A DNA stretch of 57,514 bases from a virus. The notes beneath the pieces are model-generated. The model searched no databases, had not been told where the DNA came from, and saw only the letters and a list, made by a program, of their open reading frames with translations. Of the stretch, positions 34,412 to 38,708 are shown piece after piece. Both the position numbers and the translations under genes were made by a program. Position 1 is the first letter of the stretch; each line of letters begins with the position of its first letter. The stretch lies in the IMG/VR virus record IMGVR_UViG_3300031920_000146, positions 1 through 57,514 of that record. One strand, written 5' to 3'.

Positions 34412-34561
34412 ATGGATTTATTAAATGATGATACATCAATGACAGTAAGATGTGAAAACTGCGGATGGGAAGGTTACGATGATGAATTAATTAAAAACGA
34501 TGAATTTAGTAATGAAACTTATATGTATTGCCCGACTTGTTTAAGCGATAGAATTGAATAA
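34412..34561 (+). CDS. Zinc-ribbon mini-protein (49 aa)
   Basis: ..RCENCGW...YCPTCL; hand-translated; preceded by CTTTTGTTATAAACTTTTAAAATT. Confidence 0.45.
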   Translation: MDLLNDDTSMTVRCENCGWEGYDDELIKNDEFSNETYMYCPTCLSDRIE

Positions 34562-34682
34562 TTTTTATTGTTTATATAACGGCTCGTGCAAGAATAGTGG
34601 CGATTAACGCACGAAATTAGATTGAAAGAATACAGTAAAAAAGAAAAAAAGGGAGGGTTTTCTTCTCTTAAAAACTAAGAAT

Positions 34683-35546
34683 ATGAAAAACAAATTTAAA
34701 AACAATTGCTGTGATGGAATATATAACAGCTTTGATGTACACTTTACAAGTGCCTGTGATAATAAATGCGCACATTGTATTGATATGAAATACTCTGGTT
34801 TTGATATTAAGAAACCTGATATTAACGCAATTGCAAAAACTATAATCGACAAGCAAGAAGGTTATAATGATGTTTTATTTTTAGGTGGAGAACCTTGTTT
34901 ATATTTACAAGAGTTGATTGACTGCATTAAGCTTGTGAAAGCAAAAACTAAGCTTAAAATATTTGTAACTACTGCCGTGCCAAAAATATGCCACGATAGA
35001 ATTGATTTATTCACAGAGCTTATTGCTTTGGTTGATGGAATGAATTTAAGCGTACAAAGCCACAATGAAGCTGTTGCAGATGAAATAAGGAAGGTTAAAA
35101 GTAAATATGACAGGCAATCTTTTTACAACAACCTACCAAGTAAAGAGAAGATTAGAATTAACCTTAATATTGTAAAGCCCTATTTATACAAAAAAGAGGA
35201 TATTGAAGAGTGTTTACTGCATTACGATAAGATGGGATTTAACTCTATTAAAATAAGTGAAATACAACACGGAAAAGATTATTTTGTTTCTTTTGAAGAA
35301 ACATTTAATTTAAAGCTTGGTACACCTTATTTTAATGGATGCCAAAAATATTTAAAAATGAATGATTTGATACCAAACTTTAAAACTCCAGTACTACTAA
35401 AGAGAAGTTGCTTTATTTGCGAAAAAACGCTAAAAGCCTCTTTTATGGATGGTGTAAAAGTTTGCTCAAAATTATTTACAATAGCTAAGAAAAGCAACTA
35501 TGGAGTTGTTTATGAAAACGGATGTTTAACTAAAGGATGGAGGTAA
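34683..35546 (+). CDS. Radical SAM enzyme (subfamily undetermined)
   Basis: FTSACDNKCAHCID (CxxxCxxC), LFLGGEPCL, and five further Cys in the last ~75 aa (NGC, CFIC, KVC, NGC). Confidence 0.8.
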   Translation: MKNKFKNNCCDGIYNSFDVHFTSACDNKCAHCIDMKYSGFDIKKPDINAIAKTIIDKQEGYNDVLFLGGEPCLYLQELIDCIKLVKAKTKLKIFVTTAVPKICHDRIDLFTELIALVDGMNLSVQSHNEAVADEIRKVKSKYDRQSFYNNLPSKEKIRINLNIVKPYLYKKEDIEECLLHYDKMGFNSIKISEIQHGKDYFVSFEETFNLKLGTPYFNGCQKYLKMNDLIPNFKTPVLLKRSCFICEKTLKASFMDGVKVCSKLFTIAKKSNYGVVYENGCLTKGWR

Positions 35547-35551
35547 AAATT

Positions 35552-35638
35552 ATGTACACAAGAATTTTAAGAAAAGTTGCAAACGCCATTGAAGCAATGG
35601 CAGGACACTGCGGAGGCAGTACGGGACATTGTTCCTAA
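35552..35638 (+). CDS. Unannotated 28-aa His/Cys-rich peptide (candidate precursor peptide)
   Basis: MYTRILRKVANAIEAMAGHCGGSTGHCS. GGAGG sits 8 nt upstream of the ATG, inside the end of the rSAM gene. The ATG starts 5 nt after the rSAM stop, and terminator-like hairpins follow. Confidence 0.4.
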   Translation: MYTRILRKVANAIEAMAGHCGGSTGHCS

Positions 35639-35643
35639 CCAAA

Positions 35644-35685
35644 TTGGCTTGCAAAGCCAAAAGAGCGGTGGCTTTTTCTTTTTGG
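35644..35685 (+). terminator. Tandem hairpins plus T-run after the rSAM/peptide pair
   Basis: TTGGCTT-gca-AAGCCAA, then AGCCA-aaagagcgg-TGGCT followed by TTTTCTTTTT. Confidence 0.5.
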
Positions 35686-35917
35686 TAAATTAGCACGAAA
35701 CTCGATTGAAACACAGCGCATTACCTATATATGGTGTTGTGCGCTGTGCTTTCTCTTCTAAAAAGTGATAAGATTCAAAATTAAAACCTATTCGCTTTTT
35801 AGGGGCATTGCGCACAACGGTTTGTGTATGCATAGTGCGCTTTTGAATTACGCACAGAAGTAAAAACGAAGATAACCAGCTCCGCATACGGTGTGCGAGG
35901 GCATAAAATTAAATAAG

Positions 35918-36231: not shown

Positions 36232-36537
36232 ATGAAAAAAGAAAAATATTACTTTAAACGTAGTGACTCTGAGATTTGCAGAACAGTAGCTTATTTTGAT
36301 AGCTATATGCAGCAAAACAATTTAACAGAGATTGAAGTATTTGAAGCTGAGCCTGAAATTATAGGCGGTGGTATATTTTGGTGTAAGGAGCATTTGTTTT
36401 GCGGTGATGGAACGACAGACACCTGTGGTAAAAAGAATTGTAAAGACTACGAGCCACGAAACAAAATAAGCGGTGTATGTAAACACCACACCCATAGACT
36501 ATATACACACGGCAATAAAGTTACATTACGATTGTAG
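36232..36537 (+). CDS. Cys-rich protein (101 aa)
   Basis: ..WCKEHLFCGDGTTDTCGKKNCKDY...GVCKHH. Confidence 0.55.
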   Translation: MKKEKYYFKRSDSEICRTVAYFDSYMQQNNLTEIEVFEAEPEIIGGGIFWCKEHLFCGDGTTDTCGKKNCKDYEPRNKISGVCKHHTHRLYTHGNKVTLRL

Positions 36538-36683
36538 CAATTTTTATTGTCTATAACGTTGAATGTATGTGTAGTACAGCCTTGCACATATTTTCAACCT
36601 TAAATTAAACTTAATTGGCTGTATTACATATACATATTGTTAGCGTTTCGTTTTTGAGCGTTGGCATTTTAAAACTTAAAGCT

Positions 36684-36863
36684 ATGGCAGAATATTGCGA
36701 AGATTGCGGATGTAAAGTGTACGGTAATGGATGCACTAATTGTAATGAAGAGTTATATATACTCGACCAATACGATGAACTTGAAATGGAAAGACCAAGT
36801 GAGGACACGGATTTTATGAAGAAAGCACGTGAACAGCAAGAGTGTTTGGCAAATGAACGCTAA
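36684..36863 (+). CDS. Acidic zinc-ribbon mini-protein (59 aa)
   Basis: MAEYCEDCGCKVYGNGCTNCNEE.., then an acidic tail. Confidence 0.5.
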   Translation: MAEYCEDCGCKVYGNGCTNCNEELYILDQYDELEMERPSEDTDFMKKAREQQECLANER

Positions 36864-37799: not shown

Positions 37800-38708
37800 A
37801 TGTTTTCTAAGGTAAATAAAGATAATCCGGTTATTTGTTGGTTTAGCGGTGGAATCACAAGCGCACTGGCTTGCTATTTAACGATTCAGTTATTTGGTAA
37901 AGAAAATTGCCGTGTGATATTTATGGACACCTGCAATGAAGATGATGATACATATCGTTTTATGCGAGACTGTGAGAAGTGGTATGGAATGCCAATTGAA
38001 CGGATTACGCTTATAGGTAAGGATATTGTAACAAAAAAGAGAACGGTTGTTTATGATAGCATACAGGACGTTTGGCGTAAGAATTTGAGCTTGAATGTTG
38101 CTAATGGTGCAATTTGCTCAAGTATATTAAAACGAGATTTGCGAAAGTACTGGCAAAAGGAGAATGTTTATTCGTTCCAGATTTTCGGATTTGATATTGA
38201 CGAACCAAAACGAGCTAAATCGTTTACGCTAAATTACCCAGAAGCAAACCCATTTTATCCTTTACTTATGCTTGGGTACTCAAAGAAAATGTGCATTGAT
38301 GAAGTTGTTGCTGCTGGTATTGAAATACCATTAGCTTACAAGTTAGGATTGCACAACAATAATTGCCTAAAGACACTTTGTATACAAGGAGGAATTGGAT
38401 ATTGGCAGAAAGCGGAAAGGGAAATGCCTGCCAAGTTTGACACAATGGCAGATATGGAACATGAGCTAACTGACTTGAAAGGAAAGCCAGTGACAATGTT
38501 GAAAGACCAAAGCAAAAACGGAGGTTTAGTATTCTTAAAACCACACCCTGACTATCCAGACATGAAGGATATTTCTATGATGAAAGGTAGGGAACCAAAA
38601 CCGCTGACAGATTGTAATGGTTTTTGTGGAGTTAATGACTTGGAAAGGAATAGCACTGAAGATGAAATTAACTACGAACCAAATCCAAAACAACTTTTTC
38701 AAAGTTGA
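37800..38708 (+). CDS. PP-loop ATPase, PAPS-reductase-like family
   Basis: VICWFSGGITSALACYL (SGGxxS PP-loop), then VIFMDTCNEDDDTYRFMRDCEKWYG about 20 aa later, as in PF01507-type proteins. Confidence 0.6.
   Translation: MFSKVNKDNPVICWFSGGITSALACYLTIQLFGKENCRVIFMDTCNEDDDTYRFMRDCEKWYGMPIERITLIGKDIVTKKRTVVYDSIQDVWRKNLSLNVANGAICSSILKRDLRKYWQKENVYSFQIFGFDIDEPKRAKSFTLNYPEANPFYPLLMLGYSKKMCIDEVVAAGIEIPLAYKLGLHNNNCLKTLCIQGGIGYWQKAEREMPAKFDTMADMEHELTDLKGKPVTMLKDQSKNGGLVFLKPHPDYPDMKDISMMKGREPKPLTDCNGFCGVNDLERNSTEDEINYEPNPKQLFQS

Follow-up and report, generated by a model that had tools for sequence, protein, structure and literature searches.

Much new enzyme chemistry and many bioactive molecules come from peptides modified by radical S-adenosylmethionine (rSAM) enzymes, but we found almost none of these peptides described from phage genomes. 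Can a phage carry such a system of its own? The question is raised by a stretch of 57,514 nucleotides from an uncultured tailed phage (IMG/VR record IMGVR_UViG_3300031920_000146, positions 1 to 57,514; the whole stretch is hereafter called the window), in which a gene for an rSAM enzyme is followed directly by a 28-codon open reading frame (ORF). We estimate at roughly 75% the probability that the two genes form a self-contained, phage-borne peptide-maturation cassette, in which the rSAM enzyme acts on the 28-aa peptide as its substrate. The initial annotation, made from the letters of the window, had already described a two-gene unit like those of RiPPs, peptides that ribosomes synthesize and that are modified after translation. 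This description held up: the locus encodes a precursor with leader and core next to its predicted modifying enzyme, and comparison of related loci revealed pairing of the two genes, purifying selection on the peptide gene, natural fusions, tandem and multi-core precursors, motif types that track enzyme clades, and mobility of the pair as a cassette. Judged from these sequence comparisons, both genes are real, conserved, co-inherited and co-diversified, are sometimes fused, and move together.

The peptide gene and its pairing with the enzyme gene

Both rSAM motifs read in the window, CDNKCAHC and GGEP, were confirmed in the sequence of the upstream gene (stop codon TAA, 35544-35546; Table 1), and its product matched Pfam PF04055 (Radical_SAM) at 43.3 bits against a gathering cutoff of 29.5, which places it in the rSAM superfamily. 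The downstream ORF had been described as missing from the gene calls. The ORF itself is real, but JGI had called a 33-aa version of it (P0358) from an upstream in-frame ATG at 35537, unnamed and without interpretation; we favor 35552 as the true start because an initial M[YFW]T is kept in 29 of 30 distinct relatives. The GGAGG placed by the initial annotation ahead of this ATG, inside the end of the rSAM gene, is indeed there, and relatives possess an equivalent GGAG or GGAGG, their peptide genes mostly starting 0-6 nt past the enzyme stop. Enzyme and peptide would be translated from one transcript, with the ribosome-binding site of the peptide gene lying within the end of the enzyme gene. Because the GGAGG bases also encode the conserved Gly-Trp-Arg end of the enzyme (window 35535-35546), conservation of the Shine-Dalgarno sequence is inseparable from constraint on the protein, in which G280 and W286 are nearly invariant across the family. 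The hairpins and T-run proposed to close the unit are present and plausible as a terminator (minimum free energy of the fold, -16.2 kcal/mol), but with z = -1.3 the fold is statistically not strong, and a consensus terminator scan did not flag 35644-35685 on the + strand.

Table 1. Features of the two-gene unit and of the repeat copies on either side of it (window coordinates).
Feature	Position	Strand	Remarks
19-nt direct repeat, copy 1, GCACGAAATTAGATTGAAA	34609..34627	+	Intergenic, upstream of the rSAM gene
rSAM enzyme gene	34683..35546	+	287 aa; compact single domain plus C-terminal extension; uncurated phage-borne family
N-x-C-D motif, codons of invariant C10-D11	34710..34715	+	C10 is a candidate auxiliary Fe-S ligand (putative role)
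CX3CX2C rSAM [4Fe-4S] motif (CDNKCAHC; C25, C29, C32)	34755..34778	+	Read in the sequence; invariant in the family
GGEP (G68-P71), SAM-binding 'GGE' motif	34884..34895	+	Read in the sequence; invariant in the family
Codon of invariant C220	35340..35342	+	C-terminal extension, directly ahead of a beta-hairpin (model)
Codon of invariant C243, K-R-S-C motif	35409..35411	+	Directly past the beta-hairpin that C220 precedes (model)
GGAGG, Shine-Dalgarno sequence of the peptide gene	35539..35543	+	8 nt upstream of ATG 35552; inside the end of the enzyme gene
28-codon peptide ORF, MYTRILRKVANAIEAMAGHCGGSTGHCS	35552..35638	+	Stop codon at 35636-35638
Precursor leader, residues 1-17, MYTRILRKVANAIEAMA	35552..35602	+	Conserved amphipathic helix motif M[YFW]T[KR]xLR[KR]
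Precursor core, residues 18-28, GHCGGSTGHCS, and stop	35603..35638	+	Two Gly-His-Cys motifs, the presumed modification sites
Two hairpins, then U-run	35644..35685	+	Probable intrinsic terminator ending the unit; plausible, not proven
19-nt direct repeat, copy 2, GCACGAAACTCGATTGAAA	35693..35711	+	Directly past the terminator; overlaps promoter-like TTGAAA-18-TATGGT

An ORF of 28 codons is unremarkable by itself; what lifts this one above chance is its conservation. Among 30 distinct nucleotide versions of the gene, the first and second positions of the terminal Gly-His-Cys (GHC) codons were invariant and the third varied at 33-50%, and the Cys-to-Cys spacer ranged from 4 to 15 residues with every change of length in frame. 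The leader has a fixed length, the first GHC lying 15-19 residues from the start, and the spacer floats; in GHC-type precursors 2-4 GHC motifs follow the leader, and within this clade the His and Cys of GHC are invariant, as is the Gly two residues before the last Cys. Past that Cys come 0-3 variable residues (Y, S, G, N, D, F or none). Compared with its closest relative (L016), the peptide gene of the window differs at 15 nucleotides, making 10 synonymous and 3 conservative non-synonymous codon changes, and the core shows 8 synonymous changes and no non-synonymous ones. These patterns indicate that the 28-codon ORF is a genuine gene under purifying selection. In nearly all of the homologs collected, a short Cys-containing ORF is kept beside the enzyme gene under such selection, and the division of the peptide into a leader-like half and a core with two GHC motifs, first suggested for the window, recurs among relatives as a conserved leader motif and conserved GHC.

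Existing family collections do not cover the peptide. A peptide-profile search of a 5.8-billion-protein collection, with a 62-aa form as lead sequence, returned 124 clusters, all unnamed or called 'hypothetical protein', one of them a Caudoviricetes protein in nr from a metagenome-assembled genome (MAG); none of the 124 had a Pfam domain. NCBIfam, Pfam and PHROGs gave no family for the 28-aa peptide, and six precursors from different clades matched no NCBIfam peptide model at a meaningful E-value. The window itself contains only one G[HGR]C...G[HGR]C peptide.

The first seven IMG/VR relatives, with enzymes 63-73% identical to that of the window, all had a short ORF 3' of the enzyme stop (7/7) with the pattern M[YF]T[RK]xLR...GHC-spacer-GHC-x-stop, and the pair was likewise present on an NCBI contig assembled from Clostridium perfringens (GCA_011062585.1) and on a JGI contig of 281 kb. 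When IMG/VR was scanned with a profile, 72 loci were confirmed, at 24-73% identity; wherever the enzyme is at least 55% identical, the peptide gene starts between -9 and +33 nt from the enzyme stop. A clade-agnostic detector, accepting a same-strand frame at most 620 nt downstream that ends in G-x-C plus 0-3 residues and has at least two Cys in its last 45, was positive at 67 of 73 testable loci (rSAM proteins 26-73% identical) versus 22 of 494 control windows; because the loci share ancestry and are not independent samples, 67/73 is inflated as a number of independent observations, and we read these counts as breadth across clades, not as a formal probability. In five of the six exceptions the ORF overlaps the enzyme gene, lies downstream past inserted genes or immediately upstream, or has been deleted into a fusion. 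The sixth, L080 (26% identity), is the only exception without any nearby peptide candidate.

The pair also occurs in other arrangements. P0125 and P0271, from two independent assemblies, are natural enzyme-peptide fusions of 346 aa, in which the enzyme continues through a long helical linker into ...HDCHSGRGSRTGHC, and L032 is a read-through fusion of the two proteins. L008 and L027 have tandem precursor genes beside a single enzyme gene, the tandem copies being divergent, and some precursors reach 58-62 aa with four HC motifs. In P0371, P0386, L036, L040, L042 and L075 we noticed 3-4 HC motifs together with a conserved inter-unit segment, SGETLYRKVG.GHCATYEPVN, which suggests duplicated cores with an internal recognition element of their own. 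L074 (2989-3453) is a deletion derivative, probably a decaying copy, in which the rSAM gene is truncated at about residue 120 and runs in frame into the peptide (...DGINLVERYTRLLRKMDKFIQAMAGHCGGGTGHCSS).

Motif type tracks enzyme clade. In a clade of about 40% identity, the enzyme gene is followed by ORFs of 100-157 aa whose N-terminal part is helical and whose tail, rich in Gly, Ser and Cys, has GGC, YGC or GRC repeats and ends on Cys. Other clades have GCH...GCH (26 aa), YGC...YRC...GRC (51 aa), four GGHCG repeats (63 aa), SHCSGGHCN (25 aa) or CHG repeats, and L065-type peptides end in GCH. Overall, precursors span 23-166 aa and hold from 2 to 7 or more motifs; by our reading of the sequences, the clades share a leader theme, phi-T-[KR]-phi-x-[KR]-[KR]-phi. 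Enzymes of Lak megaphages are 33% identical to that of the window. In Lak-B1 (L002, 3868-4368) one 166-aa ORF follows the enzyme gene and ends in ...SSGGCGNTYGSPYHHWSGGC (GGC-x12-GGC; the terminal stretch is also given as SGGCGNTYGSPYHHWSGGC). In Lak-A2 (L001, 3880-4350) a 114-aa N-terminal ORF stops early and a homologous GGC tail lies in a shifted frame, which may reflect a frameshift in the MAG, a pseudogene or programmed frameshifting. TAG recoding was rejected as an explanation, since reading TAG as Gln gave no longer ORF (it ends at TAA or TGA) and the GGC tail is out of frame.

This variety bears on whether the peptide is a substrate or a partner of the enzyme. It might be a small His/Cys accessory that binds a metal or an Fe-S cluster (an electron donor, a carrier of clusters or sulfur, or a chaperone), required by the rSAM enzyme for acting on a different substrate such as a nucleotide, a DNA base, a lipid or a host protein. 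Although GHC...GHC would provide a ligand set of two His and two Cys, His is not universal, whole clades having GGC or GRC in its place. Co-occurrence, coupling and fusion are equally expected of an obligate partner; divergent tandem peptide genes beside one enzyme speak against one, and the range of length and motif number, the low-complexity variable spacers and the leader-like helix are typical of RiPPs and atypical of a structured cofactor protein. An AlphaFold2 (AF2) model of the fusion P0125 left the Cys tail undocked, outside the active site, as a partner might be, with a predicted local distance difference test score (pLDDT) of 43-54 that makes the placement uninformative. The resemblance of the enzyme core to viperin and MoaA, described below, also fits a partner. 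On balance we consider an accessory role of the peptide improbable.

The enzyme family and its place among rSAM proteins

At 90% identity the enzyme family falls into 938 clusters (E<=1e-3), of which the best 120 are 280-312 aa long; clustering at 50% leaves 295 representatives, and matches over the full length reach down to about 28% identity. We analyzed conservation in an alignment of 60 diverse members (28% mean column identity), all of which matched PF04055. The invariant residues are N8, C10 and D11; C25, C29 and C32; G68-P71; and P100, S123, E193, C220, C243 and K259, so that beyond CX3CX2C only three Cys are invariant. The initial annotation had pointed to five Cys near the C terminus as a possible auxiliary site. 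Only C220 and C243 of these are conserved (C246, C263 and C281 are not), and the third invariant Cys is the N-terminal C10. In an AF2 model of the enzyme (pLDDT 95.3; predicted template-modelling score 0.91), for which the Lak sequence row was left out of the input alignment, C220 and C243 flank one beta-hairpin, and only about 15 residues precede beta-1. Two members differ in build: P0175 (695 aa) has a second, different rSAM domain (CPCGCKFC) fused to its N-terminal side, and P0161 (361 aa) has a C-terminal extension of about 75 aa ending in ...QCHGISY.

Profile searches gave the window enzyme no familiar name. It matched only the generic Radical_SAM and Fer4_12 in Pfam and only generic rSAM families in PHROGs, and no NCBIfam model, all peptide maturases included, came close to its curated cutoff. 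The best scores were those of TatD-linked rSAM (TIGR04038; 40.5 vs 129.7), viperin_w_prok (37 vs 180) and rSAM_pair_X (36.3 vs 262); lower ones went to viperin (22.5 vs 450) and MoaA (TIGR02666; 20.3 vs 284), and also to HxsB/C and PqqE. In the 60-member scan, the best E-value among the 25 NCBIfam families matched by most members was 1.7e-13. When the AF2 model was compared with the Protein Data Bank (PDB) by Foldseek, MoaA came first (template-modelling (TM) score 0.61 over 300 aligned columns), followed by viperin (0.60) and the SCIFF maturase CteB (5why; 0.54); other neighbors were PFL-AE with peptide (3cb8), EpeE/YydG (8ai1-8ai6), BtrN, anSME (4k36/4k39) and SkfB (6efn). In a PDB profile search viperin-like enzymes were the best matches (3.4e-17), over residues 15-187 only, and YydG was matched at 2e-8. 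The enzyme is thus placed near the MoaA, viperin and SPASM/twitch enzymes of the superfamily, outside every solved or curated family.

Could it be a nucleotide-directed enzyme like viperin, MoaA, QueE or NrdG, making for instance a modified nucleotide, with an unrelated or fortuitous ORF downstream, as the initial annotation had offered for an alternative? The closest core profile is viperin-like and the closest overall fold is that of MoaA, PADLOC pVip models gave 43 bits, and viperin_w_prok, NrdG and MoaA models of NCBIfam matched weakly; yet these matches are limited to the generic core (residues ~15-190; core only for pVip as well) and lie far under the curated cutoffs, those of the viperin/pVip models NF038283 and TIGR04278 among them. 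No QueE model was among the NCBIfam matches of the window enzyme at E<=1, and QueE and PFLA models matched weakly in a minority of the 60 members. A precedent would be the use of rSAM enzymes by phages to hypermodify DNA (PMC8989533), but those enzymes are SPL-like and unrelated in context. The C-terminal third of the window enzyme is family-specific, with no sequence alignment to viperin or MoaA there, and no nucleotide-metabolism gene co-occurs with it. Its genomic partner is instead a peptide, whose ORF stays in frame and shows purifying selection in essentially every related genome and is sometimes fused to the enzyme, which would be impossible for a fortuitous ORF. This alternative is extremely unlikely.

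JGI names relatives of the enzyme 'organic radical activating enzyme' or 'PFL-activating enzyme', and these names suit another possibility, that it abstracts hydrogen from C-alpha of the Gly that is invariant in G-x-C, as PFL-activase does, and leaves a radical-bearing or radical-derived peptide without a thioether macrocycle. Such a reaction would account for the invariant Gly two before the last Cys in the GHC clade and for GGC, GRC or GHC in most distant precursors (L065-type GCH excepted). It would also sit well with PFL-AE and its peptide (3cb8) among the structural matches. PFLA and NrdG models do match many members weakly, but every activase model scored far below its cutoff on the window enzyme (NrdG, 21 vs 126.1; NrdG2, 22.5 vs 131.15; nrdG3, 21.1 vs 151.7; PFLE_PFLC, 13.6 vs 174.35), and the extra invariant Cys triad is, to our knowledge, absent from the single-cluster activases PFL-AE and NrdG. 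The proteins known to carry a glycyl radical are large enzymes that bury it, and a flexible peptide of 28 aa is unlikely to stabilize such a radical. We regard glycyl-radical activation as very unlikely.

Several points nevertheless weigh against a peptide-maturation cassette. No SPASM or twitch domain (PF13186 or other) was detected in any of the 60 members at E<=0.01, and no PqqD-like or other RiPP recognition element (RRE) was among their Pfam matches; the thioether-forming maturases known so far carry a SPASM or twitch domain. The best fold match, MoaA, and the best profile match, viperin-like, are both nucleotide-directed. The absence of protease, exporter and immunity genes is atypical for secreted bacteriocin-type RiPPs. 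To these are added the shared ancestry of the loci counted above, the undocked tail in the model of the fusion, and the reaction type, which is a guess.

A possible reaction and comparison with known systems

If the two genes do form a maturation cassette, the enzyme would hold a [4Fe-4S] cluster on C25/C29/C32 and SAM on GGEP. Since C10, C220 and C243 are the only other invariant cysteines, we propose them as an auxiliary site, probably a second Fe-S cluster or a catalytic thiol set that would engage the substrate Cys. In MoaA, a C-terminal auxiliary [4Fe-4S] cluster sits on three Cys and its open iron binds substrate. CteB has a SPASM-domain cluster in which one coordination site is open and within reach of a substrate Cys (PMC8326336). 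We infer the function of the C10/C220/C243 site by analogy with these two. The N-terminal amphipathic helix of the peptide (MYTRILRK...) would be the leader, docking on the enzyme and placing the first G-x-C at the active site; a leader that sets the register is suggested by the constant distance of the first GHC from the start. A 5'-deoxyadenosyl radical would remove a hydrogen from the flexible core, at its Gly-x-Cys motifs or close by, and each Cys sulfur might then be captured as an intramolecular thioether of the sactionine or ranthionine type. Thioether formation is the reaction that we prefer, tentatively; instead, Cys might be oxidized to formylglycine, or the reaction might be an epimerisation or of the glycyl type. 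With two genes in about 1 kb, the cassette is minimal and self-contained and hence directly testable by co-expression, and it could reveal a new build of auxiliary site in an rSAM enzyme, a new Cys-directed peptide modification and a new phage-encoded effector.

The initial annotation had assigned the layout to sactipeptides, ranthipeptides or SCIFF-type peptides. Like the ranthipeptide and SCIFF systems (CteB, PapB) and the sactipeptide systems (AlbA, SkfB, ThnB), the unit sets a short leader and a Cys-bearing C-terminal core, in some cases with several motifs, beside an rSAM maturase, and CteB (5why) and SkfB (6efn) are structural neighbors of the enzyme. The assignment found no support, however, because neither a SPASM/twitch domain nor an RRE is found, and no maturase model reached its cutoff: the PapB model NF047865 matched 7 of 60 members weakly (best E-value 3.6e-7), and no SCIFF maturase or precursor model was among the NCBIfam matches of the window enzyme or the precursors. 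The enzyme is also shorter, at about 287 aa vs 400-450 aa, and has three extra invariant Cys of which one is N-terminal; the core is G-[HGR]-C near the C terminus without a conserved acceptor residue; and the pair is carried by phages without a transporter or protease. A similar mode of working may nonetheless apply.

Other rSAM enzymes share single traits with the unit. anSME and EpeE/YydG each target a particular peptide or protein residue, anSME a Cys (Cys-peptide complex 4k39), but they are fold neighbors at TM 0.40-0.47 only, their chains are longer (359-367 residues in anSME and 316-323 in EpeE), and neither family's cutoff was reached, the profile match to YydG notwithstanding. anSME carries a SPASM domain and recognizes C-x-[PA]-x-R, a motif absent from the cores of this peptide family. 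The families rSAM_pair_X (TIGR04100), HxsB/HxsC and TatD-linked TIGR04038 are likewise compact rSAM proteins defined mainly by a conserved neighbor gene. Their models gave the best, though weak, NCBIfam matches (36-40 bits for the window enzyme), and HxsC matched 53 of 60 members. The scores nevertheless remain far below the cutoffs (40.5 vs 129.7, 36.3 vs 262 and 19.6 vs 267.9), and what accompanies the enzyme here is a G-x-C peptide rather than a His-Xaa-Ser repeat peptide or a TatD nuclease. In the mycofactocin (MftA/MftC) and PQQ (PqqA/PqqE) pathways an rSAM enzyme also acts at the C-terminal end of a short ribosomal peptide; the product is a cofactor and not an antibiotic, so that no exporter or immunity gene is required. 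Both MftC and PqqE contain SPASM domains, depend on a PqqD-type RRE partner and are accompanied by further conserved tailoring genes, and a purely C-terminal reaction is unlikely here because the residue after the last Cys varies and conservation is just as high at the internal motifs.

The phage would profit from the modified peptide, which may act within the infected cell or, once the cell has lysed, outside. The lack of export, protease and immunity genes, together with a position among early or middle genes of unassigned function, argues against a classical bacteriocin and is compatible with an intracellular effector or with a product released at lysis. A broader proposal, possible but doubtful, is that these are phage-restricted minimal rSAM maturases whose auxiliary site of one N-terminal and two C-terminal Cys, without SPASM/twitch or RRE, catalyzes a new Gly-x-Cys reaction, and which have passed horizontally between phages that infect Bacillota, Bacteroidota and others, Lak megaphages included. 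On this proposal the product might be a viral effector and not a bacteriocin, for example one that inhibits host defence or a housekeeping enzyme, binds metal, or signals between phages or between phage and host.

Spread among phages and surroundings of the unit

The initial annotation knew of no such unit as a standard phage feature, and its rarity was not confirmed: it is a recurrent phage module, with 938 enzyme clusters, at least 124 peptide clusters and 72 IMG/VR loci that include Lak megaphages, and it occurs in phages of very different genome size and predicted host. Host phages range from 57-kb genomes to the Lak genomes. In GenBank phage records, full-length enzyme homologs were confined to 15 unannotated Lak genomes, two uncultured-phage records matching the core half only. 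No near-identical DNA was found in GenBank phages and no homolog in a plasmid collection; a single-protein scan of genome contigs found one short MAG contig only, the distribution in cellular genomes being under-sampled. We found no description of this enzyme-peptide pair in the literature, a provisional statement of novelty, since most subscription journals lay outside the search. The Lak-phage papers listed by a full-text search do not mention radical SAM, phages go unmentioned in a review of rSAM RiPPs from 2021 (PMC8326336), and a metagenome study from 2024 deals with RiPPs that hosts make against phages. The unit thus looks like a member of a widespread, uncurated and apparently undescribed phage-borne family of rSAM enzymes and precursors, and the cassette reading offers a first functional hypothesis for a gene pair conserved in Lak megaphages and many jumbo phages.

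Homology around the unit is confined to the unit itself. In a tblastx comparison of the window at 30-40 kb with the nine closest loci (L010, L015, L016, L017, L019, L021, L023, L026 and L034), similarity extended only over 34.68-35.67 kb, with none to the window in the 3-8 kb flanks of these loci. Neighborhoods differ completely between loci, from SPbeta-like replication genes through a jumbo-phage region to NadR/PnuC-like genes by a baseplate module. No third gene (protease, exporter or transporter, immunity, nucleotide metabolism) was conserved in 78 loci; apparent clusters of conserved neighbors (28, 15 and 12 loci) proved to be antisense ORFs inside the rSAM gene. Because homology is limited to the two genes and the neighborhoods are unrelated, the pair behaves as a two-gene mobile cassette, or moron, among otherwise unrelated phages.

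The 19-nt repeat GCACGAAAYTMGATTGAAA occurs exactly twice in the 57.5-kb window (0.11 copies expected by chance), once on each side of the unit, and the intergenic stretches around both copies also align, as in TTCTCTTCTAAAAA-like segments. The repeat may serve as a promoter or operator present in two copies, or mark the edge of a cassette. A family-wide regulatory motif was ruled out, the repeat being missing from all 86 related loci.

The remaining observations concern neighboring genes. The window, which has a GC content of about 35% and in which no tRNAs were found, encodes a terminase large subunit, a portal, a tape-measure protein, a RecT-like protein and an exonuclease. Small Cys-rich ORFs flank the unit on the + strand (34412-34561, 36232-36537 and 36615-36863) and are unrelated to the G-x-C precursor; a flanking 49-aa ORF with CxxC...CxxC had sub-threshold zinc-ribbon Pfam matches only. 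A gene resembling those of 3'-phosphoadenosine 5'-phosphosulfate (PAPS) reductases (37800-38708, + strand; phrog_424, E = 9e-48; PF01507 just above cutoff) lies 2 kb downstream of the unit and is not kept beside the pair in other loci. In L051 (1249-6751) and the syntenic L047-L061, of the clade at about 40% identity, our reading of the sequences is that the rSAM gene overlaps the end of a gene for a PnuC-like membrane protein, that a NadR-like gene (NAD salvage) precedes the PnuC-like one, and that the Gly/Cys-rich precursor comes next, and then gp25-like and large baseplate genes.

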